Origin: an uncultured Acidimicrobiia bacterium
Lineage (GTDB): Bacteria; Actinomycetota; Acidimicrobiia; Spongiisociales; UBA5794
NCBI GenBank assembly: GCA_963714055.1
Contig: OY970227.1
Location: forward strand, 2,933,330-2,997,329
DNA: 64,000 nt
Reading direction: 5' to 3'
The notes below the pieces were generated by a model, which was not told the DNA's origin, did no database searches, and was given only the letters and a program-made list of their open reading frames with translations. The position numbers were made by a program, and so were the translations under genes. The first letter of the stretch is position 1; each line of letters begins with the position of its first letter. Below are positions 12,232 to 47,570 of this stretch, one piece after another.

Positions 12232-12235
<4 letters not shown>
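10952..12235 (-). CDS. aceA: Isocitrate lyase
   Basis: [24 protein letters not shown]...[10 protein letters not shown]...[14 protein letters not shown] is canonical ICL. ATG 12235..12233 overlaps the aceB stop (ATGA). The N-terminal 325 aa of the 753-aa ORF are GC-rich junk. Confidence 0.9.
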
Positions 12236-13911
<1,676 letters not shown>

Positions 13912-13937
13912 GGACAGGGTCGCGAAGATCACAAGGC

Positions 13938-13978
13938 CTTGCAAGCCGCTGACCACGCAATATCATGTGAAGTTCACA
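13938..13978. promoter_or_regulatory. Palindromic candidate operator sites in the divergent aceB / ramB intergenic region
   Basis: CTTGCAAG at 13938-13945 has a TTGCAA core like corynebacterial RamB boxes. Perfect 13-bp palindrome TGTGAAGTTCACA at 13966-13978. Confidence 0.35.
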
Positions 13979-13992
13979 GGACGTTGAGAAGG

Positions 13993-15471
13993 GTGCAGGT
14001 TGTGACCGGTCGAGCGACGACGGCACAGACGGTCGACGGGGCGACCCTGGGGCACCGGATCCGCCATTTCCGCAAGCTGCGGGGAATGACCCTCGACGAG
14101 CTCGGGCAGCGGATCGGCAAGACGGCCCCGTTCCTGTCGATGCTGGAGAACGGCAAGCGGGAGCCCCGCCTCGGGCTGCTCAACGACATCGCCGCCGCTC
14201 TCGACGTCGACACGGTGGAGCTGATGAGCCCGCAGCCGCCCACCCGGCGAGCCGAGCTGGAGCTGGCGCTCACCGGCGCCCAGGACGACCCGTTGTACGC
14301 CGGGTTGGGCCTGCCCCGCCTCCGCCCGTCGGCCAAGGTCCCCGACCTCGTGCTGGAGCACCTGGTCGGGCTGTACCGGGAGCTGCGGCGCCGCGTGTTC
14401 CCCACGGTGGCCACCCGTGAGGAAGCTCGCATCGCCAACGCCGAGCTCCGCGCCGAGATGCGGGAACGGGGCAACTACTTCGCCGAGATCGAGCAGGTCG
14501 CCGCCGGCCTGGTCACCAGGGTCGGGTACCGGGGCGCCGCCCTCACCGAGGGCGACATGCGCGAGATCGCCGCCGCCCTCGGCTTCACCGTGCACCGGTC
14601 GCAGAACGTGCCGTCGACGGTGCGCTCGGTCACCGACCTGCGCCACCGGGTGATCCACATCCCGCAACGAGACGCCATGCCGACCGCCGGGGCCCGCTCG
14701 GTGATCATGCAGACGCTCGGCCACTTCGCCCTCGAGCACCGCGACCCGGTCGACTTCGCCGACTTCCTCCGCCAGCGGGTGGAGGCCAACTACTTCGCCG
14801 GGGCGGTGCTGCTCCCCGAGGTGGCGGCGGTGCCGCTGCTCGACCAGGCCAAGGCGGAGCGCGACCTGGCCATCGAGGACCTGCGCGATGCCTTCTCGGT
14901 CTCGTACGAGATGGCGGCGCACCGCTTCACCAACCTGGCCACCGAGCACCTCGGGTTGCGGACCCACTTCGTCCGCTCCGACGAGGCCGGGATCATCTGG
15001 AAGGCGTACGAGAACAACGACGTCCCGTTCCCGCGCAACTCGGTGGGTGCCATCGAAGGTCAGCGGCTGTGCCGGGAGTGGGGAACCCGGCAGGTGTTCG
15101 AGTCCGACGACAAGTACTCGATGCACTACCAGTACACCGACACCGCCGGCGGCACCTACTGGTGCGGCACCCACGTCGAAGCGGCGAGGGAGCCGGTGGC
15201 GGCGATCACCGTGGGAGTCGGGTTCGACGACGCCCAGTTCTTCCGGGGCAGGCAGACCAACCGCCACTCGGTCTCCAACTGCCCCGACGGCGACTGTTGC
15301 CGGCGTCCCCCTCCCGACCTGGCCGAGCGCTGGGAGGGGTGGGCGTGGTCGTCGGTGCGGCCCAACAGCCACGTCCTCGCCGCCATGCCGGTGGAGACCG
15401 TCCCCGGTGTCGACGTCACCGAGATCTACGAGTTCCTCGACCGCCACACTGGTGAACAAGTGAGCGAGTGA
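13993..15471 (+). CDS. ramB: RamB/ScfR-family transcriptional regulator (XRE HTH + DUF2083 metallopeptidase-like domain)
   Basis: HTH LGHRIRHFRKLRGMTLDELGQRIGKTAPFLSMLENGKR followed by a long C-terminal domain. Divergent from aceB-aceA, as RamB is divergent from icl1 in mycobacteria. The N-terminal part of the 1018-aa ORF is an artefact. Confidence 0.7.
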   Translation: MQVVTGRATTAQTVDGATLGHRIRHFRKLRGMTLDELGQRIGKTAPFLSMLENGKREPRLGLLNDIAAALDVDTVELMSPQPPTRRAELELALTGAQDDPLYAGLGLPRLRPSAKVPDLVLEHLVGLYRELRRRVFPTVATREEARIANAELRAEMRERGNYFAEIEQVAAGLVTRVGYRGAALTEGDMREIAAALGFTVHRSQNVPSTVRSVTDLRHRVIHIPQRDAMPTAGARSVIMQTLGHFALEHRDPVDFADFLRQRVEANYFAGAVLLPEVAAVPLLDQAKAERDLAIEDLRDAFSVSYEMAAHRFTNLATEHLGLRTHFVRSDEAGIIWKAYENNDVPFPRNSVGAIEGQRLCREWGTRQVFESDDKYSMHYQYTDTAGGTYWCGTHVEAAREPVAAITVGVGFDDAQFFRGRQTNRHSVSNCPDGDCCRRPPPDLAERWEGWAWSSVRPNSHVLAAMPVETVPGVDVTEIYEFLDRHTGEQVSE

Positions 15472-24092: not shown

Positions 24093-25335
24093 ATGCGGCG
24101 GCGTCGGCTGGCCGGGTTGGCGGTGTTGATCGTGGTTCTGGGCGGTTGCTCGGCCGCTCCCGAAGCCGACCCATCCACGACCGCGGTCGCTGCGGTGACT
24201 ACGTCGACCGAAGCACCGGCCGCTGCCGTGACCACGACGCTGCCGCCCTCGACGACCGCCGCGCCGGGCACCACCAGCGTCCCGTCAACCACCTCGACCA
24301 CCCGGCCACCGCCTCCCTCGCCCGGAGATCTGGTCCTGGTCCCGGTGGTCGATGGCCTGGAGCAGCCGGTCCTGGCGCTGGCGCCACCCGGCTCTCGCCG
24401 GCTCTACGTCGTCGACCAGGTGGGGCGCATCGTCACCGCCGGTGGCGAGGTGGTGCTCGACATCGCCGATCGGGTGCTGTTCCAGGGGGAGCAGGGCTTG
24501 CTCGGGCTGGCCTTCCCTGACGACTTCGCCACCACGGGGCGGCTGATCGTCAACTACATCGACCTGTCGGGGGACACCAAGGTTTCCGAGTTCACTGTCG
24601 GGGACCCGGACAGCGAGCGGCTGATCATCGGCATGGACCAGCCCGCCGCCAACCACAACGGCGGGATGATCGCCTTCGGGCCCGACGGCAATCTGTGGAT
24701 CGGCATGGGCGACGGTGGCGGTGCCGGCGACGACTTCGGCAATGGGCAGAACGCCGCATCGCTGCTGGGTGGGATGCTGCGGATCGACCTGGACGGCGAT
24801 CCGTACGCCATCCCGGACGACAACCCGGGCCTCGACGGTTGGCTCGCGGAGAAGTGGGCGATCGGGCTGCGCAACCCGTGGCGGTGGGCGTTCGACGGTG
24901 ACGACCTGTGGATCGCCGACGTCGGCCAGGGATCCTGGGAGGAGGTCAACGTCGTCGACGTCGGCGACAGTGGTCGTGGCCTCAACTTCGGGTGGCCGGT
25001 GTTGGAAGGCACCCACTGCTACGCCAACGTCCCCTGCGACGACGCCGGGACGGTGGTCCCGGTTGCCGAGTACTCACACAGCGACGGGTGCTCGGTCACC
25101 GGCGGGTTCGTCTACCGGGGGAGCGCCATCCCCGGGCTCGATGGCCACTACTTCTTCGGCGACTACTGCGGGGGCTGGGTCCGCAGCCTGGTGCCGGCGC
25201 GCCGGGGGCTTCGAGGAGACGCAGTGGTTCCCGCCGGGGACGGTCACCGGTCTCACCGGGTTCGGTGTCGACGGTGACGGCGAGCTGTACGTCACCAGCG
25301 TCGACGGCTCCGTGTACCGGATCGAGCAGGGCTGA
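24093..25335 (+). CDS. PQQ-dependent sugar dehydrogenase (soluble glucose/sorbosone dehydrogenase family), lipoprotein; frameshifted
   Basis: Lipobox LIVVLGGCSAA. GMDQPAANHNGGMIAFGPDGNLWIGMGDGG...GLRNPWRWAFD...NFGWPVLEG...HSDGCSVTGGFVYRG. The C-terminal 45 aa (FEETQWFPPGTVTGLTGFGVDGDGELYVTSVDGSVYRIEQG) are in the frame of ORF 24715..25335. Shift near 25191-25210 in a GCGCGCCGGGGG run. Confidence 0.65.
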
Positions 25336-25387
25336 GCGGCGCAGTCCCCACGCCGGAGTCGTCGCCACCGATAGGCTCACCGGCCAC

Positions 25388-26291
25388 ATGACCGATCGCA
25401 TCGTGGTGGTGGGCTCGATCAACCGCGACACCGTCGTCGGGGTCGACCGCATCCCGGTGGCGGGCGAGACCGTGCTCGGTCGCCACCTCGGCTCCTTCCC
25501 CGGCGGCAAGGGCGCCAACCAGGCGGTGGCGGCCGCCCGGCTCGGGCGTCAGGTGGCGATGGTGGGGCGGGTTGGGTCGGACGCCTTCGGTACCGCCGCC
25601 CTCGAGGGCATGGCGGCGGAGGGCATCGACACCACCGAGGTCGGGATCGACGCCGAGCTGCCCACCGGCTCGGCGACCATTCTGGTCGACGCCGGCGGGG
25701 AGAACAGCATCGTCGCCGTCCCTGGTGCCAATGGGAGGCTCGGCGCCGCGGAGATCGAATCGGCCGCCGCGGTGCTGGAGGCGGCGGCCGTTGTCCTCGT
25801 CCAGTTGGAGGTGCCGATCGAGGCGGTGGCGGCAACGTTGCGGTGGAGCGGCGGGACCGTGATCGTGCAACGCCGCTCCCGCCCGGCCGCTCCCGGAGGA
25901 GATCATGGGCGGCGCCGGTGTCCTCGTTGTCAACCGATCCGAGCTCGCCGTGCTCGGGGGCGGGCCCGAGGCGTCCACACCGGGCGAAGTCGTCGATCGA
26001 GCCGGTCGCCTCGGCTTCCACGGCTCGGTGGTGGTCACCATGGGAGCCGCCGGCGCGGTGGTGCTCACCGCCGCCGGGGTCACCGAGGTACCCTCGATCC
26101 CGGTCGACGTGGTCGACACCACCGGTGCCGGCGATGCCTTCTGTGGTGGGCTGGCCGACGGCCTCGCCCGGGGCACCACCCTGGTGGAAGCGACCCGGTG
26201 GGCGGTGCGGGTGGCGGCCCTCGCCACCACTCGCCTCGGTGCCCAGGAGGCGCTGCCCACCACCGAAGAGGTGGATCAGCAAGGAGCGTGA
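25388..26291 (+). CDS. rbsK: Ribokinase (PfkB family); frameshifted
   Basis: N-terminus MTDRIVVVGSINRDTVV...GGKGANQAVAAARLG. C-terminus in the other frame: VLVVNRSELAVLGG...DTTGAGDAFCGGLADGLA. Shift near 25861-25875. Its stop overlaps the GTG of the next gene. Confidence 0.65.
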
Positions 26292-27220
26292 GCGTGCGGC
26301 GGATCATCATCGACACCGACCCGGGACAGGACGACGCCGTCGCCATCCTCACCGCCCTGGCGTCACCCGAGCTCGACGTGGCGGCGATCACCACCGTCGC
26401 CGGCAACGTCCCGCTCGAGCGCACCACCAACAACGCCCTCGCCATGGTCGAGCTGGCCGGCCGTCCCGACGTGCCGGTCTACGCCGGGTGCCGGCGACCG
26501 ATGGTGCGGCAGCTGGTGACCGCCGAGTACGTGCACGGTCCCACCGGGATCGACGGGGCGGACCTGCCCGCCCCCGGCATCTCGGCTGCGTCGGGGCACG
26601 CCGTCGACGCCCTCGTCGACCTCCTGCTGGCCGCAGAGGCGACCACGGTGTGCCTGCTCGGCCCGCAGACCAACCTGGCGATGGCGATGGTGAAGGAGCC
26701 CTCGATCGTCGACCACATCGACGAGGTGGTGCTGATGGGCGGCGGCTTCTTCGAGGGGGGCAACACCACCCCGGCCGCCGAGTTCAACATCTACGTCGAT
26801 CCGCACGCCGCCCACGTGGTCTTCTCCAGCGGCGTCCCCATCACGATGATGCCGCTCGACGTGACCCACCGGGCGCTGACCACCGACGCCCGCATCGCCC
26901 GGTTCCGTGGGCTGGGGACGGCGGCCGGCGACGCCACCGCCGGGATGCTCGACTTCTATGACCGGCACGACGAGGCCAAGTACGGCACCGAGGGCGGCCC
27001 CCTGCACGACCCGTGCGTCGTCGCCTACCTGCTTCGTCCCGAGCTCTTCACCGGCCGGCGGTGCAACGTCGCCATCGAGCACCGGTCGGAGCAGACGATG
27101 GGGATGACCCTGGTCGACTGGTGGGGGGTGACCGGCGCCGAGGCCAATGCCCGGGTGATGCGGTGGATCGACGCCGACGGCTTCTACGACCTGCTGGTGG
27201 AGCGCATCGGCCGGCTGTGA
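26288..27220 (+). CDS. Nucleoside hydrolase (IUNH/RihA-like)
   Basis: RBS AAGGAG, GTG 26288. Signature IIIDTDPGQDDAVAIL. This is the C-terminal part of the artefactual 770-aa ORF. Confidence 0.8.
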   Translation: MSVRRIIIDTDPGQDDAVAILTALASPELDVAAITTVAGNVPLERTTNNALAMVELAGRPDVPVYAGCRRPMVRQLVTAEYVHGPTGIDGADLPAPGISAASGHAVDALVDLLLAAEATTVCLLGPQTNLAMAMVKEPSIVDHIDEVVLMGGGFFEGGNTTPAAEFNIYVDPHAAHVVFSSGVPITMMPLDVTHRALTTDARIARFRGLGTAAGDATAGMLDFYDRHDEAKYGTEGGPLHDPCVVAYLLRPELFTGRRCNVAIEHRSEQTMGMTLVDWWGVTGAEANARVMRWIDADGFYDLLVERIGRL

Positions 27221-27321
27221 CCGGACCGATCATCGACAAACTTTGAGCGAGTGACGCCACCAGATGGCTTCAATCGCACAAAGTTCGCCCAGGCGGGAAT
27301 GTCGCTCCGCAGTGCCGGGTT

Positions 27322-27330
27322 TGTGTCACA
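27322..27330. promoter_or_regulatory. Palindrome TGTGTCACA about 25 bp upstream of the NurA start
   Basis: Perfect 9-bp palindrome in the only sizeable intergenic gap before the NurA-HerA-Mre11-Rad50 operon. No mycobacterial-type LexA box (TCGAAC-N4-GTTCGA) seen. Confidence 0.2.
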
Positions 27331-27352
27331 CCCCGTTCCTACCATTCCCACC

Positions 27353-28315
27353 ATGACCGAGTTGTTCGTGGAGGCGTGGGCGCCGGAGTACGGGAATCCC
27401 TTCGAGGCCGATCTCGAGCTGGCCGATCCGTCCAAGGTGGACGACACCGTCGAGGTCGCATCGACCTGGGACCCGATCCCGGGCGTCGACGACGGGATCG
27501 CCACCGTGGCGTTCGTCGACGGGGTGCGAAGGATCGACGCCAGGCTCACGCTCGACGCGCCCGGGGGCCCGATCCCGGGCATCTGCGGGACCTACGCCGT
27601 CGGCGCCGCCACCTGGCGGCGCGACATCCCCCGCACCGACATCGATCGGGTGAGGGTCGACCGGCTGGCCGTGTTCGGGCACGGGGCGGCCGCCCCGGTG
27701 CCGGTGGCGGGGCCGCAGCTCGCCTACCGGTCGGAGTCGGTACCGGGGAGCGACGCCCAGGAGCTGATCCAGCGCTTCCACGGCGCCATGCGGAAGGCCG
27801 AGGCGGTCCTGTCGGAGGCGCTGGCCCAAGAGGGGTGCTTCGTCGTCGCCGACGGCCCGATCAACGATCTCTCCGCCACCGAGAAGGTCGGGTTCATCAA
27901 GACGCATCGGGCGCCCTACCTCCCGCCGGAGCGGATCCCGGTCGTCGCCGCTCTCCGGCGGGCGGAGCGGACCCCGCTGTTCCTCATCGGCAAGGAGGGG
28001 GCCTACCCGCGGTACTCCTGGTACCAGCGTCTCGCCACCCTGCCAGACGCGCACTCCTGGAGCGGTGTCGTCCGGTGCGAGGTGTCCAGCCATCTCGACC
28101 TGGCGACGGCACGGCGCATCGCCGACCGGACCGCCGCCATCCTGCCGCTGGTGGGCTCCGAGCCGCAGGTTGAGCCGCGAGCACCGCAGAACCTGGTGCC
28201 CATCGGGGCGCTCGAGCGGCACCTCCGTCGCCACATGGGTGAGCCCGGGTTCGTCAACCGTGCGCTACGGTCGGCGGTGACGCGACAGCGCCGGGCAACG
28301 GGGGTGACGGCATGA
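27353..28315 (+). CDS. nurA: NurA-like 5'-3' nuclease (RNase H-fold)
   Basis: About 320 aa. D-containing motif IATVAFVDGVRRIDARL resembles NurA motif I (vaiDGS). Sits immediately upstream of, and ATGA-coupled to, a HerA-type ATPase and then Mre11-Rad50. Start is uncertain (ATG 27251 and ATG 27353 both possible). The call rests mainly on context. Confidence 0.5.
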   Translation: MTELFVEAWAPEYGNPFEADLELADPSKVDDTVEVASTWDPIPGVDDGIATVAFVDGVRRIDARLTLDAPGGPIPGICGTYAVGAATWRRDIPRTDIDRVRVDRLAVFGHGAAAPVPVAGPQLAYRSESVPGSDAQELIQRFHGAMRKAEAVLSEALAQEGCFVVADGPINDLSATEKVGFIKTHRAPYLPPERIPVVAALRRAERTPLFLIGKEGAYPRYSWYQRLATLPDAHSWSGVVRCEVSSHLDLATARRIADRTAAILPLVGSEPQVEPRAPQNLVPIGALERHLRRHMGEPGFVNRALRSAVTRQRRATGVTA

Positions 28316-30045
28316 GCGAAGGTGGCGCCGGAGTCGGTCGTGTGCTCGGCACCCAGCACACCACCACCAGCGGGTTCCGCGTCGTGCTCGACGACGACGA
28401 CTACCTCCAGCTCGACGATCTGGTGGTGGTCCGCACCCAGGTGCCGAAGGGTGGCGAGGTGCGCACCTACGGAGTGGTCACCGAGAGCGAGGCGATCTAC
28501 GAGGGGGCCCAGTACGAGTCGGACACCCACCGGATCGCCGCCGAGGGCATCCTGCCGGCCGCCAAGGTGCGGTCGGCGCAGGTGGCGGTGACCCGGGTCG
28601 ATCCCGAGATCTGGGTATCGCCGGATCCGGGGGAGGTGGTGGAGCGCGCCGCCGGCGCCGAGCGGGCCAAGGCCCTCTACCTCGACCAGATGGAGCGTGC
28701 CCTGCCCATCGGGCTGGGCCGCGACGGCGAGCCGGTGTACGTCGACCTCGACTTCTTCGACGGGAGGAAGGGCGGGCACATGTCCATCTCGGGTATCTCC
28801 GGGGTGGCGACCAAGACGTCCTTCGCCTTGTTCTTCCTCAGGTTGCTCAGCGGCCGGCCCGACATCGTGGGCGAAGGCGCCGCCAACCTCCGCATCCTGG
28901 TCTTCAACGTCAAGGGCGAGGATCTGCTCTGGCTCGACCGGCCCAACCGCTTCTTCGATCCCGAGGCGGCCACCGTCTGGGAGCGGCTCGGGGTCGCCGC
29001 CGGGCCCTTCCCCTCGGTGGCGTTCTGGGCGCCGCCGCGGTCGTCGTCGGGCGACACCGTGATCCCGGACATCGGGGGGCGCCTCGAAGGTGTTGCCGCC
29101 TTCACCTGGACACCGCGGGAGTTCATCGACGAAGGGCTGTTGCGGTTCCTGTTCACCGATGCCGCCGACTCCCGCAACCAGATCCCGTTCATCGAGGAGC
29201 GGGTCAGGGCGCAGCTCCGCCGGTTCGCGGTGGACGTCGAGGGCCTGCCGGGAGCGGTGGTCCTGCGCGACCCGTCGGTCGAGTCGTTCCGGCCCGGCGA
29301 GCGGGCGGTGGCCCACCAGGGCGAGCGGGTGATCACCGATCTGCGGACCCTGGTCGAGGCGGTCACCGAGTTCGTCGACCCTGATGACGGGTCGGAGCCC
29401 GATCAGAAATGGACCGGTCGGGTGCAGGCAGGCACCGTCTCGGCGTTCGCCCGCAGGCTCCACGCCGCGGTCAGTCGCCTCGGTCACCTGGTGCGGGCCG
29501 GGGAGAGCAGGAGGATCGACCGCGCGGCCGCCCAGGTCACCGTGGTCGGCATCCAGTCGCTCCACGACCTCGGCCAGCGCTTCGTCGTTGGGGCGCTGCT
29601 CGCCGAGACGTTCGCCGAGAAGGAGAACACCGGCCAGCGGTTGCCGTTGTCGGTGGTGGTGCTCGACGAGCTCAACAAGTACGCCCCCCGCGACGGGTCG
29701 AGCGCCCTCAAGGACATGCTGGTGGACATCGCCCAACGGGGCCGTTCGCTCGGTGTCCTTCTCGTGGGCGCCCAGCAGACGGCGTCGCGGGTCGCCCAGG
29801 AGGTGATGGAGAACGCCGCCATCCGGGTCGCCGGCCGGCTCGATGCCGCCGAGGCCGAGAGGGCCGAGTACGGGTGGATGCTCCCGTCGACCCGGGCGAG
29901 GGCGCGCCTGCTCAAACCGGGGACGATGGTGGTGAGCCAGCCTTCGATCCCGGTGCCGCTGGTGGTCGAGTTCCCCTTCCCACCGTGGGCCACCCGCAAG
30001 GAGGAGGTCGACGACCGAGACGTCGACCCGTTCGCCGGCCTGTGA
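28312..30045 (+). CDS. herA: HerA-like FtsK/HerA-superfamily hexameric ATPase/helicase with a deviant Walker A
   Basis: N-terminal HAS-barrel-like beta region (GFRVVLDDDDYLQLDDLVVVRTQVPKGGEVRTYGVVTE). P-loop region HMSISGISGVATKTS, a deviant GxxGxxxKT rather than GTTGSGKS. Walker B LSVVVLDELNKYAP. 577 aa, typical of bacterial HerA. Confidence 0.6.
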   Translation: MSEGGAGVGRVLGTQHTTTSGFRVVLDDDDYLQLDDLVVVRTQVPKGGEVRTYGVVTESEAIYEGAQYESDTHRIAAEGILPAAKVRSAQVAVTRVDPEIWVSPDPGEVVERAAGAERAKALYLDQMERALPIGLGRDGEPVYVDLDFFDGRKGGHMSISGISGVATKTSFALFFLRLLSGRPDIVGEGAANLRILVFNVKGEDLLWLDRPNRFFDPEAATVWERLGVAAGPFPSVAFWAPPRSSSGDTVIPDIGGRLEGVAAFTWTPREFIDEGLLRFLFTDAADSRNQIPFIEERVRAQLRRFAVDVEGLPGAVVLRDPSVESFRPGERAVAHQGERVITDLRTLVEAVTEFVDPDDGSEPDQKWTGRVQAGTVSAFARRLHAAVSRLGHLVRAGESRRIDRAAAQVTVVGIQSLHDLGQRFVVGALLAETFAEKENTGQRLPLSVVVLDELNKYAPRDGSSALKDMLVDIAQRGRSLGVLLVGAQQTASRVAQEVMENAAIRVAGRLDAAEAERAEYGWMLPSTRARARLLKPGTMVVSQPSIPVPLVVEFPFPPWATRKEEVDDRDVDPFAGL

Positions 30046-31211
30046 AGGTCCTCCACACGTCCGACTGGCACGTCGGCAGACGCATCGGGCGCTACGACCG
30101 TTCCGAGGACCACCGCAACGTGATCGACGAGGTGGTGGGCATTGCCGACGCCGAGGACGTCGACCTGGTGCTCCACTCCGGCGACCTCTTCGACCGGCCC
30201 TTTCCCCCGGTCGAGTCGCTTCACATCGCCCTCGGGGGACTCGTCCGTCTCGCCGCCGGCGGACGGCGCCCGGTGGTGGTCATCGCCGGCAACCACGATT
30301 CGCCCGGTTTCTTCGAGGCGTTGGCTCCGTTCGTGCGCAGCACCGGCATCCACCTCGTGGGGGACGTCCATCGCCCGGACGAAGGCGCCGTGCTCGACCT
30401 CGAAACCGCCGCCGGCAGGGCGGTGGTCAGCTGTTTCCCGTTCCTGCGCGAGGGCCGCGCCTTCCACGCCTGGGAGCCGATCGACGAGCACTACAAGAAG
30501 TACGCCGATCGGCTGCGCGGCATATCCGAGGCGTACAGCGCCCACGCCTCGAAGGTGGCCGGCGCCGGCGCGGTGACGTTCCTCGTTGCCCACTTCCTGG
30601 TCGGCGGGGCCAAGGTCCACGGGCACGGGGCGGTCCGGGGAGAACGTGAGCTGCACATGGGCGAGGCCTATGCCGCCACCCCCGAGGCGATCCCACCGGG
30701 CCCGCAGTACGTGGCGCTGGGGCACATCCACGCCCCCCAGCGGGTGCCGGGCGCGAGGGTGCCGGCCGAGTACGCCGGGTCCCTGCTCGAGCTCGACTTC
30801 GGCGAGGCCGGCGAGCACAAGCGCGTCGTGGTCGTCGACGTCGAGCCGGGGCTGCCCGCCACGGTGCGCTCGATGCCGTTGTCCAGAGGGAGACGGCTGG
30901 TCCGGGCCAGGGGGGAGTGGGCCGACCTGGTCGCCCGCGACGACCTGAGGGAGGCCTACCTCGATATCACCGTAGAGACGGCCGGCCCCGATCCCGGCCT
31001 GGCGGAACGGGCGCTCGAAGAGTTCGACTTCGTGGTCAACGTCCGAGCGGAGTATCCCAAGGTCGAGGGAGAGCGCCCCCATCGGGCACATCGGACGCTC
31101 GACGACCTCTACGTCGACTACTGCACCGAAGGCGATGGAGTGGCGCCACCCGACGCCCTGGTGGCGGCATTCCGGTCGGTGATGGAGGAGGTCGCCGGTG
31201 CGCCCGCTTGA
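30042..31211 (+). CDS. sbcD: Mre11/SbcD nuclease (calcineurin-like phosphoesterase)
   Basis: GTGA overlap with herA. Phosphoesterase motifs DWHVG, GDLFD, GNHD, ...GHIH. Confidence 0.85.
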   Translation: MKVLHTSDWHVGRRIGRYDRSEDHRNVIDEVVGIADAEDVDLVLHSGDLFDRPFPPVESLHIALGGLVRLAAGGRRPVVVIAGNHDSPGFFEALAPFVRSTGIHLVGDVHRPDEGAVLDLETAAGRAVVSCFPFLREGRAFHAWEPIDEHYKKYADRLRGISEAYSAHASKVAGAGAVTFLVAHFLVGGAKVHGHGAVRGERELHMGEAYAATPEAIPPGPQYVALGHIHAPQRVPGARVPAEYAGSLLELDFGEAGEHKRVVVVDVEPGLPATVRSMPLSRGRRLVRARGEWADLVARDDLREAYLDITVETAGPDPGLAERALEEFDFVVNVRAEYPKVEGERPHRAHRTLDDLYVDYCTEGDGVAPPDALVAAFRSVMEEVAGAPA

Positions 31212-33714
31212 GCTGCGGCTGCGCAACTTCCGTTCCTACTTCGGCTCACAGGCCGCCTTCGACTTCCGCAACCGGTCGCTGGTCGGGATCGTCGGCCCGA
31301 TCGGCAGCGGCAAGTCGTCGCTCCTCGACGGGGTCGCCTTCGCCCTCTACGGGCGGACGCCGTCCGAGGGCTCGGCCACCTCCCGCCTGATCCACCAGCG
31401 CGCCGGTGACGGAGGTGTCAGCCTGCGGTTCGAGGTGGACGGCGAGGTGTGGGAAGCGGTTCGGGTCCTGCGCCGCAAGGGACAGAGCCAGCACGCCCTC
31501 TACCGGTACGACGAGGACACTCCCGAGGCGGAGCCGGTCGAGAAGGTCACCCAGGAGCGCCAGGTGAACGACCGGATCAGAGACCTCCTCGGTCTCGATT
31601 TCGACACGTTCGGGCGATCGGTGCTGCTCGCCCAGGGCAGGTTCGCCGAGTTCCTCAAGGGAGCGCCCGCCGACCGCGACCGGGTGCTGAAAGGCGTCTT
31701 CGGTCACGACCGCATCGACCAGATGCGCGAGGTCGCCAAGGCCAGGTCGGTGGTGCTCGGCCAAGAGGTTGCCGCGTTCGACGGCAGGTTGGCCCAGGTT
31801 TCCGTGCTGGAGGCGAAACTGGCGGAGCGCGTCGCCGAGCTCGAGGACATCGAGGTGAGGCTCGAGGCCCTGGCCAAGGCGGAGCCTGCGGTCGTCGATC
31901 TCGAGCTGCGGATCTCCGCAGCGCGCGCCGGTGTCGAGAGGGCCACGGCCAGGCGGGAGGAGCTGGCTCCGCTCGGCGAGCGCCTGGCGTCCCCCGCCGC
32001 GGTCGCCGAGCTCGAGGAGCGTCTCGGCGCGCTCGAGGGAAGACGGCGCCGGCTCGCCGTCGAGATGGACGAGGCCGACGCCGCCCGGAAGGAGGCAGAC
32101 GGTCTGCTGGCCGAGATGGAGGCGGCCGGGGAGCAGGATTTGATCAGCGCCGCCGAGATGGCAGTCGCCACGCACCAGCAGGTGACACTCCGCATGGCGG
32201 CCGCCGGCGACGAGTCCGCACGCGTTGCCGACCAGCTCGAAAGGGTGATCGCCAAGCACGGAGCCATCGTCACCCGCCGGGAGGAGGCCGTGCTCCTCGA
32301 ACAGTCCGCCGAGGCCGCCCTGGCCGTCGCCGACCGGGCTCTGCGTCAGGCGAGGTCCGAACGGCACGATGCGGCGCACCGCAACATGGCGATCGAGTTG
32401 CGCAAGGAGATCACCGCCGGTGACGCCTGCCCGGTGTGCCGCCAGCCGGTGGAGACTCTGCCCGCTCCGACTGCGGCACCGGACCTCGACGCAGCCGAGG
32501 CCGCCGAGTCAGCCGCAGAGGATGGCCTGCGGGCGGCGCGGCAGCGAAGGGACGATGCAGCCGCTGCCGTCGTCCAGTTGGAGGCAACGGCGACTGCAGT
32601 CGACGATGAGGTCGTCCGGCTCCGCGCCGACGTGGAGCGGGCCGACGAGGCACGTGCCACCTCGACCCGTGCCGTCGCCGCGGCGGCGTCAGAGGTCTGC
32701 CGGCTCCTCGGCGAGGGTGACGCGTCCGAGTTGCTCGAGGCGCGGCGTCAGCGACTGGCCGCAGCCAGGGGAGCCGCCATCGAGACCCGCCGACGATTCG
32801 AGGCGGTGGATGGTGAGCTGCGGCGGGTGGTGGACGACGTGACTGCGGTTGCGGCCGGTGTCGGCGAGCTCCGCAGGGAGGCCGACCGGGTGGCGGGCCG
32901 TCTCGGCCTCGACGACGACCCCGGCGTCACAGAAGCCGAGGAGTTCGGTGTGTACCTGGCCCGCCTTCGACTGGCATGGTCGACTTCGCTGGCCGAGGCG
33001 TCGGCCCACGCCGACGCCTCTGCCGTCGAGCTGGCCGCGTCGACGGCATCCCGATCCGAGCTGCTCGCCGAATTGGGGGTGACCGGGGATTTCCACCAGG
33101 GGCTCGCCGCCGCCAGGGCCGATGTCGATCGGCTGGCGAAGGACGTCGCCGCCGATCGGCTCGAGGTCGCCGCGGCAAGCTCGCTCGAGGCGGAGCGCGA
33201 GGCGACGGCAGCAGACAAGGCCATCTACGACCGCATCGCCGGCGACCTCACCAACGCCAACTTCATCCGCTTCCTCCTCGACGACGAACGGGCACGGCTG
33301 GCGGACCTCGGCGGCGACCACTTCATGCGACTCACCTCTGGCCGCTATCGCTTCACCGATGACGGGGTCTTCGATGTCGTCGACCAGACGGCGGCGGGGG
33401 CGGTCCGCAAGGCCTCCAGCCTGTCCGGCGGGGAGACCTTCCTGGCATCGCTGGCGCTGGCGCTGGCCCTGGCCGAGATGGTCACCAGGACCGGGGGACG
33501 CCTCGACGCGTTCTTCATCGACGAGGGGTTCGGCTCGCTCGACCCGGAGCACCTCGATCTGGCGATGGAAGGGATCGGCAGCCTGGTCGCGAACGGATCG
33601 TCCCGCCTGGTGGTCGTGGTCAGCCATGTCCCCGAGCTGCAGGAGACCATCGGTGACCTCATCAAGCTGGACCGTGATCCCCTGACGGGCGACACCCGGG
33701 TGATCCGCGCCTGA
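31198..33714 (+). CDS. sbcC: Rad50/SbcC ATPase
   Basis: Walker A GPIGSGKSSLLD. Long coiled coil with zinc-hook CPVC (about residue 400). Signature SLSGGETFLASLALAL. Walker B FFIDEGFGSLD. H-loop VVSHV. 838 aa. Confidence 0.85.
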   Translation: MRPLELRLRNFRSYFGSQAAFDFRNRSLVGIVGPIGSGKSSLLDGVAFALYGRTPSEGSATSRLIHQRAGDGGVSLRFEVDGEVWEAVRVLRRKGQSQHALYRYDEDTPEAEPVEKVTQERQVNDRIRDLLGLDFDTFGRSVLLAQGRFAEFLKGAPADRDRVLKGVFGHDRIDQMREVAKARSVVLGQEVAAFDGRLAQVSVLEAKLAERVAELEDIEVRLEALAKAEPAVVDLELRISAARAGVERATARREELAPLGERLASPAAVAELEERLGALEGRRRRLAVEMDEADAARKEADGLLAEMEAAGEQDLISAAEMAVATHQQVTLRMAAAGDESARVADQLERVIAKHGAIVTRREEAVLLEQSAEAALAVADRALRQARSERHDAAHRNMAIELRKEITAGDACPVCRQPVETLPAPTAAPDLDAAEAAESAAEDGLRAARQRRDDAAAAVVQLEATATAVDDEVVRLRADVERADEARATSTRAVAAAASEVCRLLGEGDASELLEARRQRLAAARGAAIETRRRFEAVDGELRRVVDDVTAVAAGVGELRREADRVAGRLGLDDDPGVTEAEEFGVYLARLRLAWSTSLAEASAHADASAVELAASTASRSELLAELGVTGDFHQGLAAARADVDRLAKDVAADRLEVAAASSLEAEREATAADKAIYDRIAGDLTNANFIRFLLDDERARLADLGGDHFMRLTSGRYRFTDDGVFDVVDQTAAGAVRKASSLSGGETFLASLALALALAEMVTRTGGRLDAFFIDEGFGSLDPEHLDLAMEGIGSLVANGSSRLVVVVSHVPELQETIGDLIKLDRDPLTGDTRVIRA

Positions 33715-41416: not shown

Positions 41417-44400
41417 TCACGCTCCGGCCGCGGCGGCGACGTGGCGCCGGCCGGCTTCGCAGGCGTTGAGGAAGTCGCATCGGCGGCACGCCTCGCCGGG
41501 GGTCGGGTCGAATCGATCGCCGGTGACCTGCGCCGCCAGTGCCTCGAGCCGGGTCCCGGCCGCCGTCAGCCACGCCGTGTCGGCTTCGTGCACCACCTCG
41601 TCGGCCGGGTCGGTGCCGAGGTACACGAACCCGGCGGTGATCCGCTCCGGGCGTCCCCCGACGACGCCTCCGCGGGCGGCGGCCACGGCGTAGGCCTCGA
41701 GCTGGACCACCGCGGTGGGATCGTCGGACCGGGTGCCCGTCTTCCAGTCGATGATCTCCCACCACCCCGGCTCGGGCTCGAAGACGGCATCGATCCGGCC
41801 CCTCACCCGCACCCCGGACAGTGTCAGGTCGATCGGGGTCTCGGTGAGCCGGGGCTTCACGGTGGCGAACCGGGTGGCCGAGAACGCATCGAAGGGGTCG
41901 CCGGCATCGTGGCCGCTCCCGCCGGCGACCTCGGCGGTCGGTGGCGCGTCAGGTTCCAGGTCGTCGAACGGCCGCACCCCCATGTGGTGCAGCTCGATTC
42001 TGCGGTGCACCTCGCTGCCCCGGCGCAGCCATGGGCCGGGGCGCCGGGGGAGCGGGTCGATCTCAGTCCAGAAGAACCGCTGGGGACACGATGCCAGGGT
42101 CACCAGCCCGGTCACCGACGTGGTGGGCGCCGGCGGGGGTGCGGCCGGGGGACCGGCGGGCAGGCCGTCGAGCATGAGCTCGAGCTGACGCCGGGCCGGC
42201 TCGGTGTCGGCGGCTAGCCCCACTTCGCCGCCTTCGACGGCCTCGAGCAGCTTCTGCGCGCCATCCGGAGGGAAAGTGCGGATCAGGCCCTTCGGCGCCG
42301 GCGGTGAGCGTCACGTCCTGCGGGCGCTCACCTGGGTCGTTCACCCATTCGATCTGGCTGGCCCCGGGCACATCCCGTGCCAGCGCCAGCAACTCGCCGG
42401 GGACGTACGCCGTTCGAGGGCGGTCCCAGGCGGCGCCGGTCATCAGCAGCCGCCGGCGGGCCCGGGTGACGGCGACGTAGGCGGTCCGCAGCTCGCTGTG
42501 GTGGTGGTGGTGCCGTAGCCGCTCGGTGATCTCGGCCTGTCTGCCGGTGAGGTCGGGAAGGTCGGCGGTGTCGAGTCGGAGCTCGTAGGGCAACCACCGC
42601 GACTTCGCCGTCGGGTTGTCGAAGCCGAAGGACTTTCCGGGGAACACCTGGTGAGCCAAGGCGGGCATGAAGACGGTGTGCCACTCGAGGCCCTTGGCCC
42701 GGTGCACCGTGAGCAGTGGGACGGCATCCTCCCCGCCTACGGTTGCGGTGTCGAGCTCGGCGGCGGCCCGATCCTCGGAGAGCAGGTCGAGGTAGCCGAG
42801 GAAGCCCTCCAACGACGGCCTACCCGCCAGCGGGCTCCAGTCCTCAGCCAGGTCGAGGAATCGGTAGAGGTTGAGCCGAGCGGTGAGCCCGGCCACCTCT
42901 GGCATCGCCTCGATCTCCGTCCATCCTTCGATGGCGTCGATGACCCGTCGGATGAGCTCGACCAGCGTGCATTGCTGGGCGGCCGCCAGTAGGGCCCGAT
43001 AGGTGTCGCGGAAGTCGTCGAGCACCCCGGCGACCTCCGGTGAGGTGGCCCCCTCACCCCGGTCGAGCGCCTCGAGCATTGGATAGGGGAGCGCCAGGTC
43101 GGGATCGGAGTCGCCGCCGTGCCGGTGGCGCACCCAGCGGGCGAGCGGCGCCAGGTCGCCCAACCCGAGCCGGTACCGGCTCCCGAGCAGGATGCGGGCG
43201 AGCGCTACCGAGTCGTCGGGAGCGGCGAGGATCCGTAACCAGGCGTGGACGTCGGCCACCTCGGGCACCTCGATCAGCCCTCCCATGGAGACGACCTCGT
43301 GGGGGACGTCGGCGGCCGCCAGGGCGGTCCGCACCGGCCCGATCGAGCGGTGCCGCCGGAACAGCACTGCCATGTCCCGCCACTCGATGTCTTCTTCGTC
43401 GTGGAGGCGCCGGATCTCCCCGGCGATCCACGCCGCTTCGTCGGCGGACGTGCGGAACCAGCCGTAACCCAGGTGGTCGGGGACGGGCTCGGCGGGCACC
43501 AGCGGATCGGTGGCGGCCCCTTCGTGGAGAAGGTCCTTCACGGCGTTGGCGACAGCGAGGATCGTCGGTCCGGAACGGCGGTTGGTGGTGAGCGGGAGGC
43601 TGTGAGCCGGCTTGCCGTCGGTACGGAGGAAGTGTTCCCCGAACCCGGTGAAGTTGGTGAGCGATGCGCCGCGCCATTCGTAGATCGTCTGGTCGCCGTC
43701 ACCGACGGCGGTGACGGGGAACCCGTGCCCGAAGATCGCCTGGAGCATCATGCGCTGGCCGGGGTCGGTGTCCTGGTACTCGTCGAGCACTACGACCCGG
43801 TAACGGTCCCTGATGCGTCCGGCGATCTCGGGATGGCGTTCCACGACCCGGTACGCCAGGTGCACCAGGTCCCCGAAGTCGACCACACCGAGACGGCGCT
43901 TGGTGGCTTCGTACGATGTGAGGATCCGGGCCAGCTCGAGCCGCTCCAGCCAGACGTCGTCGGGGTCGCTCGGAACAGCGGCGGCGATGTCGGAGGGGGC
44001 AACGAGGTTGGCGGCGGCCTGAGCCCCCAATGTCGCCGCCTCGTCGAGGCGTTGGGGGAGGGCGGTCATCTCGAGGTGGTCGTACACCTCGGTGCCGATG
44101 CTCTCGTGGAGCAGTTGCCGCACGTACCCGGCGCCGACCACCGCCAGGTCCCGCTCGACCCCGATCACCGCCCCGAACTCGCGCGAGTATCCGCAGCGCG
44201 AACCCGTGGTAGGTGTTGACCTCGACCTCGCGGCCGTCGGCGGCGTGCCTGGGCATCCGCCAGCGGAGCCGGTCGGCCAGCTCCTCCGCCGCCTTGTTGG
44301 TGAAGGTGATGCCCAGCGCCTCCTCGGGCTCGACGCCGCCGTCCACGGCGGCCACCAACCGCTCCACCACCGTTGCCGTCTTCCCGGTCCCCGCTCCGGC

Positions 44401-44475
44401 GGCGACCCGCAGTGGCTCGGGCGGGTGGTCGACCACCGCTTGCTGCTCCGGGGTGAGGGTGAAGGGAGCCGTCAT
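41417..44475 (-). CDS. AdnB-like UvrD-family helicase with C-terminal RecB-type (PD-(D/E)XK, Cys-cluster) nuclease; second gene of the pair; two frameshifts in this assembly
   Basis: ATG 44475 overlaps the upstream stop (ATGA). Walker A AGAGTGKTATV. Motif II LDEYQDTD. Nuclease core IIDWKTGTRSD...CRRCDFLNAC. A run of five consecutive His (RLRHHHHHS). Reading-frame changes at about 44175-44190 (GCGCG) and about 42278-42290 (CCC/GGG run). Confidence 0.65.
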
Positions 44476-47400
44476 GCGACGAACCCCTCGGCGCCCTCGG
44501 GCCAGGCCGGGCAGACGGTGCGGACCGGGCAGCGGTCGCAGTGATCGCCTGTCCTCGGGGTCCAGTCCTCCGAGGTTATGCCGCCGGCGATGGCGGACAT
44601 CCGCTCGGCCACGGCCGGGAGGTTGGCCATGTCGAACTCCAGCCGCCTGAGGCTCTTCTGACCGCGGCTGGCCCACGGGAACCACATCTCGGCGCCGGTC
44701 ACCTCGCCTCCGACGGCGACCTCGGGGTCTCTCCGGCCGGCGAGCACGTAGAAGCCGAGTTGGAGGGACTCCGCCGCCTCGGGTCTCGTCGGTGCGGTGC
44801 TCCCCGTCTTGTAGTCGACGATGACCAAGCCGGCGGGGCGACCTTCGATGAGATCGACCCGCCCCACCCACCTGGTCCCGGCATGGTCCATCTCCAGCTG
44901 CCGTTCGACCATGACCGATTGGCCGCCGACGGGCCGCTTCAGGTAGAGCTGCTCTATCACGATCCCGGCGCGCCGCCGCCACGCCGTTGCGTGCGGCTCG
45001 CCGCCGAACGAGTAGCCGTCGAACAGCCGGTCGAGCTCGGTGTCGGCGTCCTCGAAGGTGCTCGGCGGGGCGTCGGGAGTCTCGATCACGGCACGCTCGA
45101 CGTTCTCCATGACCCTGTGCACCAGTGAGCCGAGCTCGGCGTGGTGGGAGCCGGCGTCGCCGATGGCCAGGCGCCGCGTGAGGGCGTGGCGGCGCGGGCA
45201 CTGTTCGTAGGACTCGCCCTGGCTGGGGGAGAGGCGCAACGGGAGCTCGACCAACCCGGTGTCCGGGCCTCGGTGCCGGAAGCCGGCGAAGCTGGTGACC
45301 GGGCGCATGCCCCAGCGGGCGCCGTCGGCCAAGACGGCGATGGCCGCCTCACGCAAGGGACGGCCGGCGCGCACCACAGAGGGGCCGCCGCCGGCGACCG
45401 GCAGCTCCACCCTGGCCTCGGGATCGCCGGCCAGGCGCCGGAGCAATCCCTCCGCCTCGGCGACGGTCACCGGGGGATGGCGTGGTGGCTCGTCGACCGC
45501 TTCGTCGACGGTCTCCACGCCGGCGGCGAGGGCGAAGAACCGGGACGGCAGCCCCTGACCCATCTCGGACCCGGTCGAGGTGGCCGTCCACACCACCCGG
45601 CGCGAGGCGCGGGTCATCGCGGTGTAAGCGAGTCGTCGTTCCTCTTGGAGGCGGAAGCGGCGGTACCCCGGCGAGTCGTGAGGCACGTCGGCGAGGAGGT
45701 GGCGAACCCCGAGCAGGCTGTCCTGCATCCGCAGGTCGGGGAAGACACCCTCGACGGCGTCGGCGATGAACACGACCTCGAATTCCAGGCCCTTGGCCTG
45801 GTGGAGCGTCGTGATGGTCACCTGGTCTTCCTCCGGGGCCCGGTACGAGACCAGGGGTCTCGCCTCGAAGGACTCCTCGTCGAGCAGCGCCGCGTACTCG
45901 ATGAGCGTCCCCGCGGGGTTGCGCTCGTTCCAGCGGGTGAGCACCTGGAGCAGGGACGCCCATGCCCGCCGTGACCGGCGGTGCTCGGCACCGGTGGTCA
46001 AGGCGGCGAGCTGGGGGAGCGACTCCCACACCTTCCAGGCGCCTTCGGCGGCGGCGGCGGCGGTTGCCCACCGGTCGTCGCCGAGCAGCCCGGCCAACTC
46101 GGGGAAGCGCGGTCGGAGGGTCTCCACCCAGTGCCCGGTGGCCGCATGGGCCCGTTCCACGTCGCGCACCTGACCCAGGGTGAGCCCGAACCACGACCCG
46201 AGCAGGAGGTGCCTGACGTGGCGGGCGAGCACAGGCGACTCCGGCGTGGTGGCTGCGGCGACCAGGTCGAGGAGGAAGCGGACCTCGGGCTGCTCGGTGG
46301 TGCGGCTGCTCGGTGGCTCGTGGGCGATGCCGCGACGTGACAGCGCCCGTGACAGCTCGGCGACGAACCTCCGTTTGCTGCGCACGAAGACCGCCATCGA
46401 CCCGAAGCGCAACCCGTCGCGCAGGTTGAGGCGGAGGATCTCGGCGGCGATCCACTCGGCCTCGGCGGTCTGCTGGTGGAATCGGTGCAGATCGACTCGG
46501 CCATCGCCCGCCGCCGCCGTCACCGGACCCGCTGCTCCGGGGATGTCGGTCCCCGCCACCCTCTCGGCGGCGCGCAGGATCGCCTGCGGCGTGCGGAACG
46601 ATGTGGTGAGCACCACCCGGCGCGCCGGTGACCCGACTCCGCCGAACGTCTCTCCGAAGCGGGCGACGTTCTCGACGGCGGCGCCCCGGAAGCTGTATAT
46701 CGATTGGTAGGGATCGGCGGCGGCGGTGATGTTGCCGTCGGCGGCGAGGACCCGGAGCAACTCCACCTGGGCGGTGGTGGTGTCCTGGTACTCGTCGACG
46801 AGCACGTAGCGAGGTTTCAGCGGGTGGTCGGCGAGGACGGCGACGGCCTCGGCGAGGACCATCCCGTAGTCGATGCGGCCATCGGCGATCAGTCGCCTGC
46901 GGTAGCGCTCCATGAACTCGGGCAGGCCGCGCCATTCGTCGCGCTCCATGGCGGCGACGTCGCCGGCGTCATGGAGTTGCTCGCCGGCGCGCAGCAGGAA
47001 GTCGGTGACCTCGTCGGCGAACGTCCTGGTGCACAGCAAGGGGCGCATCGCCACCGACCACGCCGACGGTTCCTCTTCGGCGAGCAGACGGCGAACCAGC
47101 GCCGCCTGCTCGGGGCCGGTGAGGATCTGCGGGGGCCGGTGCCATCCACGGTCGCCGTGGTGGACCTCCACCAAGCCGGCGGCGAGGGCGTGGAACGTGG
47201 TCACCGTGATCGGGGGCGAGTCGGGCGGGGTTGTAGCGGCGATGCGCCGCTCGAGGTCGGCCACCCCGCGGCGGCCGAAGGCGACCACGCTGATGGCGTC
47301 GGCGGGCACGCCGGCCCCGACCAGGTGGGCGGCGCGTCGCACCAGGAACTCGGTCTTGCCGGTACCAGGGCCGCCGACGACGATCTGGGGCCCGTCGGTC

Positions 47401-47570
47401 GACGCTACCGCATACCCCCAGTCCTCGGGTCCCACCTCGATCTGTGCCTCGGAGCCGCCGCCCGCGGTCCTCTCGTTCCCGACCGTCTTCACAACCCTCC
47501 GTTCTGACGACCAGCAGTGGTGCCGCCCTCCTCGACCACCCTCGGTCACCGTATCAAACGGGGGTGACAC
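44472..47570 (-). CDS. AdnA-like UvrD-family helicase with C-terminal RecB-type nuclease (intact, 1032 aa); first gene of the pair
   Basis: Walker A GGPGTGKTEF. Motif II VLVDEYQDTT. C-terminal nuclease LVIVDYKTGS...CDRCPVRTVCPAW. Confidence 0.75.
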   Translation of the reverse strand: MSPPFDTVTEGGRGGRHHCWSSERRVVKTVGNERTAGGGSEAQIEVGPEDWGYAVASTDGPQIVVGGPGTGKTEFLVRRAAHLVGAGVPADAISVVAFGRRGVADLERRIAATTPPDSPPITVTTFHALAAGLVEVHHGDRGWHRPPQILTGPEQAALVRRLLAEEEPSAWSVAMRPLLCTRTFADEVTDFLLRAGEQLHDAGDVAAMERDEWRGLPEFMERYRRRLIADGRIDYGMVLAEAVAVLADHPLKPRYVLVDEYQDTTTAQVELLRVLAADGNITAAADPYQSIYSFRGAAVENVARFGETFGGVGSPARRVVLTTSFRTPQAILRAAERVAGTDIPGAAGPVTAAAGDGRVDLHRFHQQTAEAEWIAAEILRLNLRDGLRFGSMAVFVRSKRRFVAELSRALSRRGIAHEPPSSRTTEQPEVRFLLDLVAAATTPESPVLARHVRHLLLGSWFGLTLGQVRDVERAHAATGHWVETLRPRFPELAGLLGDDRWATAAAAAEGAWKVWESLPQLAALTTGAEHRRSRRAWASLLQVLTRWNERNPAGTLIEYAALLDEESFEARPLVSYRAPEEDQVTITTLHQAKGLEFEVVFIADAVEGVFPDLRMQDSLLGVRHLLADVPHDSPGYRRFRLQEERRLAYTAMTRASRRVVWTATSTGSEMGQGLPSRFFALAAGVETVDEAVDEPPRHPPVTVAEAEGLLRRLAGDPEARVELPVAGGGPSVVRAGRPLREAAIAVLADGARWGMRPVTSFAGFRHRGPDTGLVELPLRLSPSQGESYEQCPRRHALTRRLAIGDAGSHHAELGSLVHRVMENVERAVIETPDAPPSTFEDADTELDRLFDGYSFGGEPHATAWRRRAGIVIEQLYLKRPVGGQSVMVERQLEMDHAGTRWVGRVDLIEGRPAGLVIVDYKTGSTAPTRPEAAESLQLGFYVLAGRRDPEVAVGGEVTGAEMWFPWASRGQKSLRRLEFDMANLPAVAERMSAIAGGITSEDWTPRTGDHCDRCPVRTVCPAWPEGAEGFVA

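Follow-up and report, generated by a model that had tools for sequence, protein, structure and literature searches.

In this study, we analyzed a 64-kb stretch of DNA from an Acidimicrobiia bacterium (hereafter, the window) and found at positions 27353-33714 a four-gene locus, nurA-herA-sbcD-sbcC. The locus is probably a vertically inherited chromosomal operon that joins a bacterial-type NurA-HerA nuclease/translocase to SbcCD, and we propose that it serves in DNA-end processing. Its four-gene arrangement is normal for a large bacterial subclade, where linkage to sbcCD is nearly universal. The operon consists of four co-oriented, overlapping open reading frames (ORFs) on the plus strand, all intact at full length: nurA (27353..28315; 320 aa), for a bacterial-type NurA nuclease; herA (28312..30045; 577 aa), for a bacterial-type HerA hexameric double-stranded DNA (dsDNA) translocase/ATPase with a HAS-barrel, a RecA-like core, and a helical insertion; sbcD (30042..31211; 389 aa), for a Mre11-family metallophosphoesterase nuclease; and sbcC (31198..33714; 838 aa), for a Rad50-family SMC-like ATPase. 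The nurA TGA overlaps the herA ATG in the sequence ATGA (28312-28315), the herA TGA overlaps the sbcD GTG in the sequence GTGA (30042-30045), and the sbcC GTG at 31198 sits 14 nt ahead of the sbcD stop (31211). These junctions confirm the translational coupling, along with the ORF coordinates, that a first-pass annotation of this DNA had read from the sequence; the identities it gave to all four genes also held, through matches to the HerA and NurA of Deinococcus radiodurans (drHerA and drNurA) and to SbcD and SbcC family models. At its longest, the nurA ORF begins at GTG 27251, but ATG 27353 is the better-supported start, because an identical 320-aa gene call is on record (P0271), orthologues are mostly 315-320 aa long, and NurA conservation starts at M-x-x-L-x-V-E-x-W-x-PEYG, that is, from this ATG. 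G+C is ~70% throughout the window, and the composition of the operon is not distinct from its surroundings. At such a G+C content, long antisense ORFs are expected noise, and coding status must therefore rest on homology.

For the first two genes, the homology that identifies them is to proteins of solved structure. In phmmer searches of solved structures, NurA matched drNurA (7F6D_H) at an E value of 1.9e-24 and Thermotoga TM1739 (tmNurA; 1ZUP) at 1.7e-9, and a profile of 22 NurA orthologues reached the same two chains at 2.6e-55 and 4.5e-25. The first-pass annotation had called NurA mostly from context plus a VDG motif, a call that these matches bear out. Three acidic residues, D56 (in FVDG, residues 54-57), E150, and D167 (in ADGP), are invariant across the 22 orthologues, and in alignments with drNurA and TM1739, D56 falls at their VDG motif and D167 at their DGP motif. 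Conserved motifs mark both ends of the protein, W9-x-PEYG at the N terminus and RAPQNLVP at the C terminus. When the N-terminal 88 aa were compared with the PDB, the alignment spanned residues 33-86 only, without W9-x-PEYG and without W8 or the pin residues 10-15 of drNurA. From the homology to solved NurA chains, we infer an RNase H-like fold for this protein.

HerA residues 5-569 align with residues 12-604 of drHerA (7F6D_B) at an E value of 8e-126 (phmmer, full length), and the profile of the HerA clade reaches drHerA at 2.4e-222. drHerA forms a hexameric ring that translocates dsDNA and has an ATPase activity stimulated by DNA and NurA (PMC9960219). The Walker A motif of the window protein, GISGVATKT (28792..28818, plus strand; residues 161-169, including K168 and T169), has by inspection one residue beyond GxxGxGK[ST] and Ala in the place of the last Gly. 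The Walker B motif VVVLDE (residues 448-453) lies together with a pore arginine in VVVLDELNKYAPR (29653..29691, plus strand), where D452, E453, and R460 align with D487, E488, and R495 of drHerA. Both the GISGVATKT loop and the intact Walker B are present in the HerA ORF as the first-pass annotation quoted them, but its view of the loop as a local deviation, possibly marking an altered or regulatory subunit, does not hold. In an alignment of the window HerA with 24 diverse representatives (33-57% identity), G161, G164, A166, K168, and T169 are invariant across all 25 clade members, as are D204, D452, and E453, and the Walker A of drHerA is identical (ISGISGVATKTS). The alignment places drHerA residues K175/T176/D220/D487/E488/R495/R552 at window residues K168/T169/D204/D452/E453/R460/R517. 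In drHerA crystals, K175 contacts the beta-phosphate of ADP and T176 binds Mg2+; K175 and D487/E488 mutants are impaired in ATPase activity and resection, and D220, R495, and R552 are further functional residues described for this protein (PMC9960219). Because the motif is invariant in the clade and its Lys and Thr bind nucleotide in drHerA, the idea of a regulatory subunit is unsupported. Judged from the alignment, GISGVATKT is the clade-wide form of the HerA P-loop and no mark of a degenerate or regulatory subunit in this genome. The Mg-ATPase of drHerA is 10- to 100-fold below that of Sulfolobus HerA, and Mn2+, DNA, and NurA stimulate the enzyme (PMC9960219). The clade-wide P-loop may relate to this low Mg-ATPase and Mn2+ stimulation, which would then be a family-wide property.

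The third and fourth genes are matched by family models directly. SbcD matches Pfam Metallophos (1.7e-13) and SbcD_C, exceeds the 77.65-bit cutoff of TIGR00619 with 148 bits, and has a complete set of phosphoesterase motifs (DWH, GDLFD, GNHD, and GHIH). SbcC matches Pfam AAA_23, SMC_N, and SbcC_Walker_B. On TIGR00618 sbcc it reaches 210 bits, short of the cutoff of 478; it is therefore a divergent, shorter (838 aa) member of the family. It carries the Walker A motif GPIGSGKSS, the signature LSGGE, the Walker B motif FFIDEGF, and the H-loop VSH, and its long coiled coil is rich in Ala, Glu, and Arg. A CxxC motif forms the zinc hook of Rad50/SbcC proteins, and the sequence reads CPVC (32428..32439, plus strand; residues 411-414) in the middle of the coiled coil.

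By these scores, all four proteins are of bacterial lineage, and their likeness to archaea is limited to the organization of the genes. SbcD scores 155 and 148 bits on bacterial models versus 58 on Sulfolobus Mre11. For SbcC, the bacterial sbcc model gives 210 bits and archaeal Rad50 models give at most 73. Sulfolobus HerA (4D2I) is matched by the HerA clade profile at an E value no better than 0.002, and in the ATPase core only. Of the first-pass description of the operon as archaeal-type, the four-gene organization therefore stands and the proteins do not. The archaeal HerA-Mre11-Rad50-NurA operons of Sulfolobus and Pyrococcus have the same four functional roles in one co-oriented cluster, and the mechanism proposed for them is the same, with a hexameric HerA feeding dsDNA to a NurA dimer and Mre11-Rad50 at the end. 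However, archaeal and bacterial NurA and HerA share <20% identity, and bacterial NurA differs in its dimerization mode and in having a pin motif (PMC9960219). The SbcCD of the window is of the bacterial type, unlike archaeal Mre11-Rad50, and neither the HerA nor the NurA model of Pfam detects the window proteins. Against the general GxxxxGK[ST] consensus, the HerA Walker A has one extra residue. Among bacteria, the closest comparator is the D. radiodurans pair (DR_0836/DR_0837; PDB 7F6D, 7WRW, and 7WRX), which belongs to the same families as the window pair. As here, nurA stands directly ahead of herA, the Walker A (ISGISGVATKTS), Walker B, catalytic acid, and pore arginines of HerA are conserved, and NurA has the conserved acidic residues and a C-terminal RAPQNL motif. 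The pairs differ in context: the Deinococcus/Thermus pair does not adjoin sbcCD (PMC5448004; PMC4663267), whereas the window pair lies in an overlapping operon with sbcD-sbcC. The window pair also carries a PafBC-type promoter motif, and its host has AdnAB-like genes, while Deinococcus lacks RecBCD/AddAB.

The window operon is one case of a widespread arrangement. A scan of one genome per species found a relative encoded in at least 595 genomes; the best 80 loci were kept for analysis of gene order, which could be judged in the 56 that had enough flanking DNA. The best 80 loci come from Acidimicrobiia, other Actinomycetota, Chloroflexota, Acidobacteriota, and others and include RefSeq genomes of Micromonospora, Actinoplanes, and Actinomadura. 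The four-gene cluster is present in 54 of the 56 loci, with sbcC inferred in four of them: 35 have the order of the window, nurA-herA-sbcD-sbcC; 15 have herA-sbcD-sbcC-nurA; and 4 further loci have herA-sbcD-nurA with a gap the size of sbcC. Only two have nurA-herA alone. The linked genes are all on one strand. These counts, together with an Oceanithermus precedent, overturn the first-pass claim that the module is unusual in actinobacteria; the co-occurrence check across Acidimicrobiia and Actinomycetota finds the arrangement to be routine there. The precedent is Oceanithermus profundus, in which the same four genes were noted in 2017 as nurA-hepA-sbcD-sbcC, where sbcD and sbcC follow the herA homologue (PMC5448004). 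Oceanithermus belongs to Deinococcota and the window to Actinomycetota, and the Oceanithermus case was noted from genome context only (PMC5448004). NurA/HerA homologues have also been listed for Actinobacteria in a review (PMC8708640). Acidimicrobiia loci share glucose/sorbosone dehydrogenase (GSDH), major facilitator superfamily (MFS) transporter, and CoA-transferase neighbors even where HerA identity has dropped to 47%. From this we conclude that the operon is a stable part of the chromosome and that it is neither an island nor newly transferred. The HerA family as a whole comprises at least 7997 clusters at 90% identity and 1064 clusters at 50% identity (E<=1e-10). With at least 595 species-level genomes, bacterial NurA-HerA is spread far more widely than the "only in a few bacteria" of the experimental literature suggests.

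Several individual loci in the survey merit a comment. The order herA-sbcD-sbcC-nurA, of which the window order is a circular permutation, was found in loci L049, L050, L053, L062, L063, L067, L068, L070, L071, L073, L074, L076, and L078-L080, and its hosts are Micromonospora, Actinoplanes, Actinomadura, Microthrixaceae, and Rhabdothermincola. In distant members of the HerA clade (35-38% identity; L081 and L082), sbcCD does not adjoin herA. Upstream of herA in L082 (1433-3307) is a 358-aa gene without a Pfam match that is likely nurA, and L081 (7001-8803) has no obvious adjoining nurA. In a Dehalococcoidia metagenome-assembled genome (MAG) (L043, ~6894-9644), the nurA frame seems to run into herA without a stop, either as a fusion or through a long-read frameshift. 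The nearest relative of the window is L027, from the Acidimicrobiia MAG MFD05567.bin.2.61, with 94-96% DNA identity. An apparent SbcC identity of 53% gave the appearance of rapid divergence in this relative, an idea that we rejected because the low value is due to frame breaks of the MAG in sbcD/sbcC (L027, 9735-13417).

A candidate promoter lies directly upstream of nurA. Scans of 26.5-34.5 kb for sigma-70 promoters, intrinsic terminators, and Rfam families found nothing, and neither a sigma-70 consensus nor an Rfam match is present in the 132-nt spacer that precedes nurA. However, a PafBC-type (RecA-NDp) motif, TGTCACACCCCGTTCCTACCAT (27324..27345, plus strand), with a GTC "-26 element" and the -10 hexamer TACCAT, ends 7 nt ahead of the nurA ATG. 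The sequence fits the 22-nt consensus for PafBC (RecA-NDp), tGTCgg(N10)tA(N3)T, equivalent to tTGTCRgtg-8nt-TAnnnT (PMC8635444; PMC5656591). The pattern TGTC-N12-TANNNT has three sites in the 64 kb, versus 0.64 expected. The second, TGTCACCCCCGTTTGATACGGT (47548-47569, minus strand), is at the 5' end of an adnA-like ORF, and the third (52009-52030, minus strand) is 7 nt before ATG 52001 of a PD-(D/E)XK nuclease ORF. The start codon of the adnA-like ORF is uncertain, with an in-frame GTG at 47549 that overlaps the -10 hexamer. Of 73 orthologous loci, 40 carry GTC-N12-TANNNT shortly before the first gene of the operon, relative to a background of 0.009 per 210 nt (104 matches in 2.38 Mb), and the distance from the -10 hexamer to the first in-frame start codon is 6-8 nt in 35 of these 40. 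The motif was absent from the Chloroflexota and other non-actinobacterial loci that were checked.

The position of the -10 hexamer, 7 nt before the ATG, leads us to predict a leaderless transcript, and the PafBC-type promoter leads us to predict that the operon is inducible by DNA damage or fork collapse. The mycobacterial PafBC regulon includes adnAB and sbcD (PMC11348249). The mycobacterial promoters resemble the predicted one in lacking a -35 element, in having a bipartite motif of 22 nt with TANNNT 12 nt after an invariant GTC, and in standing ahead of adnA-like and sbcD-containing transcription units. They differ in that the window nurA motif has ACACCC after GTC, where mycobacterial PafBC promoters are GG-rich, and in that it is placed for a leaderless mRNA. 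Among the papers searched, we found none that ties a PafBC-type promoter to nurA-herA. From the conserved motif, we predict that the operon, adnA, and the PD-(D/E)XK nuclease gene belong to a non-mycobacterial damage regulon that is independent of LexA. Between the stop of the upstream gene (27220) and the nurA promoter motif there is also an inverted repeat at 27239-27285, AACTTTGAGCGAGTGACGCCA / TGGCTTCAATCGCACAAAGTT, with 21-nt arms that are 86% complementary and a 5-nt loop. It is a possible terminator hairpin without a T-tract or a possible operator, and L027 has an indel directly after its equivalent of this repeat.

Homology to drNurA-HerA (PMC9960219) and to SbcCD suggests a model for the function of the operon. 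SbcCD, as a member of the Mre11-Rad50 family, would recognize and open or trim blocked, hairpin, or broken DNA ends. A HerA hexamer would then load on the duplex end and use ATP to pump dsDNA into a NurA dimer bound to the HAS-barrel face of HerA; after splitting the strands, NurA would degrade chiefly the 5' strand, so that a 3' tail remains for RecA. The operon would be read as a leaderless mRNA from the PafBC-type promoter (-26 GTC / -10 TANNNT) and induced together with the AdnAB-like genes. We infer both the cooperation of NurA-HerA with SbcCD, which could be physical or functional, and the polarity of resection. In vitro, drNurA-HerA resects dsDNA ends and leaves 3' tails (PMC9960219).

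Several observations weigh against a role of this operon in DNA-end processing or against the gene assignments on which it depends. Deletions of nurA or herA in D. radiodurans and Thermus have yielded modest effects on damage resistance or even improved it, and the biological role of bacterial NurA-HerA has been called controversial (PMC9960219; PMC4663267). A functional link between bacterial NurA-HerA and SbcCD is an open question in the literature (PMC4663267). The promoter motif is absent from the Micromonospora and Actinoplanes loci, so the predicted regulation is not universal. Finally, the window NurA has no Pfam match, including PF09376, at E<=0.1 and none usable in NCBIfam, while the window HerA has no Pfam family at E<=0.1 and in NCBIfam only weak EccC/EssC Walker B matches. 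Thus, the profile check with Pfam NurA, HerA, and HAS-barrel models that had been suggested for these genes gave a divided result: the window proteins are not matched, but 9 of 22 NurA orthologues match PF09376 (best, 5.2e-7). A precomputed PF09376 match also exists for one 71%-identical NurA homologue. Because homologues of solved structure match strongly, we attribute the Pfam and NCBIfam misses to the reach of the models and do not take them as evidence against the identity of NurA or HerA. They do amount to an annotation gap. NCBI names among the matches listed are mostly "ATP-binding protein" or "hypothetical protein," with one NurA, a 69%-identical homologue named "DNA double-strand break repair nuclease NurA"; JGI calls the NurA homologues "hypothetical protein" and the HerA homologues "DNA helicase HerA-like ATPase." On the question of SbcCD that the Deinococcus groups left open, the near-universal linkage provides genome-context evidence, and cultured Micromonospora and Actinoplanes are candidate organisms in which to test the NurA-HerA/SbcCD link.

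The alternative to end processing that deserves the most weight, though we think it unlikely, is that the module works mainly in another DNA transaction, such as at collapsed or converging forks, on hairpins, or in DNA transfer, a role that has been proposed for Thermus HepA/NurA. Only the physiological substrate would differ, with proteins and chemistry unchanged. The D. radiodurans nurA/herA mutants are little radiosensitive, and other roles have been suggested (PMC9960219; PMC4663267); hepA and a NurA paralogue affect transjugation in Thermus (PMC5448004), and the PafBC-regulated sbcD and adnAB of mycobacteria are described as fork-repair genes (PMC11348249). However, drNurA-HerA makes 3' tails from dsDNA ends in vitro (PMC9960219), end processing agrees with both the close operon linkage to SbcCD and the damage-type promoter, and such a transaction and end resection are not mutually exclusive. 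It is improbable that HerA is catalytically altered or purely regulatory on account of its noncanonical Walker A. The loop does depart from GxxxxGK[ST], and the slow drHerA Mg-ATPase with its stimulation by Mn2+, DNA, and NurA (PMC9960219) leaves room for a clade-wide tuning of ATP handling, yet the loop is invariant across the clade, and drHerA, with an identical loop, binds ADP via K175/T176 and needs K175 for ATPase activity and resection. The Walker B motif, catalytic acid, and pore arginines are intact, and no feature is peculiar to this genome.

The possibility that the four genes form an anti-phage or anti-plasmid defense system, in which a HerA-family ATPase would work with a nuclease effector and an SMC-like sensor, seems slighter still. 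HerA-family and Rad50/SMC-like ATPases are found in several defense systems, and PADLOC matched HerA to mad8 (3e-8) and to its HerA model (3e-6), over ~75-100 profile positions each, and SbcC to mad3 and LmuB. Other solved HerA chains (8XAU, 8ZIQ, and 8WIV) match only the C-terminal ATPase region (residues ~434-567), at E values of 2e-4 to 0.36, much less strongly than drHerA does. However, the PADLOC matches of HerA are confined to the Walker B region, those of SbcC are to general SMC-like ATPase models, and NurA has none. By far the closest solved relatives are the D. radiodurans NurA-HerA end-resection proteins, the neighborhood is conserved across Acidimicrobiia, and the damage-type promoter is common to adnA. 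Among the scanned neighbor ORFs, no SIR2, DUF4297, or methylase partner was found, some flanking ORFs being without a Pfam match. We rejected a defense-system identity on the weakness of the PADLOC matches, which are to ATPase-core models, and on the conserved neighborhood. A recent horizontal gain of an archaeal herA-mre11-rad50-nurA cluster is the least credible of the alternatives. The herA-sbcD-sbcC-nurA order of the Micromonospora-type loci is presumably that of the Sulfolobus operon. The four-gene content equals that of thermophilic archaea (PMC2288612). Against such a transfer are the 155 and 148 bits of SbcD on bacterial models versus 58 on archaeal Mre11, the 210 bits of SbcC on bacterial sbcc versus 73 on Rad50, and the weak match to Sulfolobus HerA (4D2I; E=0.002) in the ATPase core only; moreover, the G+C content matches the surroundings, and synteny is kept within the class.

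A vertically inherited NurA-HerA/SbcCD operon for end processing can also be extended to a more specific proposal, which we offer tentatively and consider doubtful. NurA-HerA might be an obligate partner of SbcCD in the large subclade, which includes Actinomycetota, Chloroflexota, Acidobacteriota, and others, and form with it a damage-induced, four-protein resection or fork machine beside AdnAB. The clade-invariant, longer Walker A (GxxGxA[TA]KT) may slow the motor with Mg2+ and impose a dependence on partner, DNA, or Mn2+. The operon module might even replace AdnAB here, since adnB looks frameshifted in the assembly.

The minus strand carries the AdnAB-like pair (41417-47570), separated from the downstream end of the operon by 7.7 kb, in agreement with the AdnAB-type machine that the first-pass annotation placed ~8 kb away. 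The adnA-like ORF (44472-47570, minus strand) is intact. The adnB-like gene (41417-44541, minus strand) is split over three reading frames, which hold the UvrD N-terminal part (43699-44541), the rest of the helicase (42063-44168), and a PD-(D/E)XK nuclease (41417-42223), all on the minus strand; the frame changes fall near 44018-44178 and 42063-42223. The RecB/Cas4-like PD-(D/E)XK nuclease ORF that carries the third promoter motif (50043-52076, minus strand; ATG 52001) lacks a stop, which is missing at ~51100, and continues into a CBS-domain-containing OpuAA-like ABC ATPase. A natural fusion, loss of the stop, or an indel error may account for this read-through. Upstream of the operon, a pfkB-family kinase gene (25397-26291, plus strand) is split over two frames near 25820-25905, with profile positions 3-147 in the frame of ORF 24908-27220 and positions 184-301 in the frame of ORF 25905-26291; it is followed by an inosine-uridine nucleoside hydrolase gene (26303-27220). 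The broken adnB-like, pfkB, and nuclease genes are either assembly indel errors or pseudogenes. Farther away, at 10952-15471, a minus-strand isocitrate lyase gene adjoins a plus-strand ORF with HTH_3 and IrrE-like Peptidase_M78 domains, which we take to resemble the actinobacterial RamB/PrpR-type regulators found beside icl.

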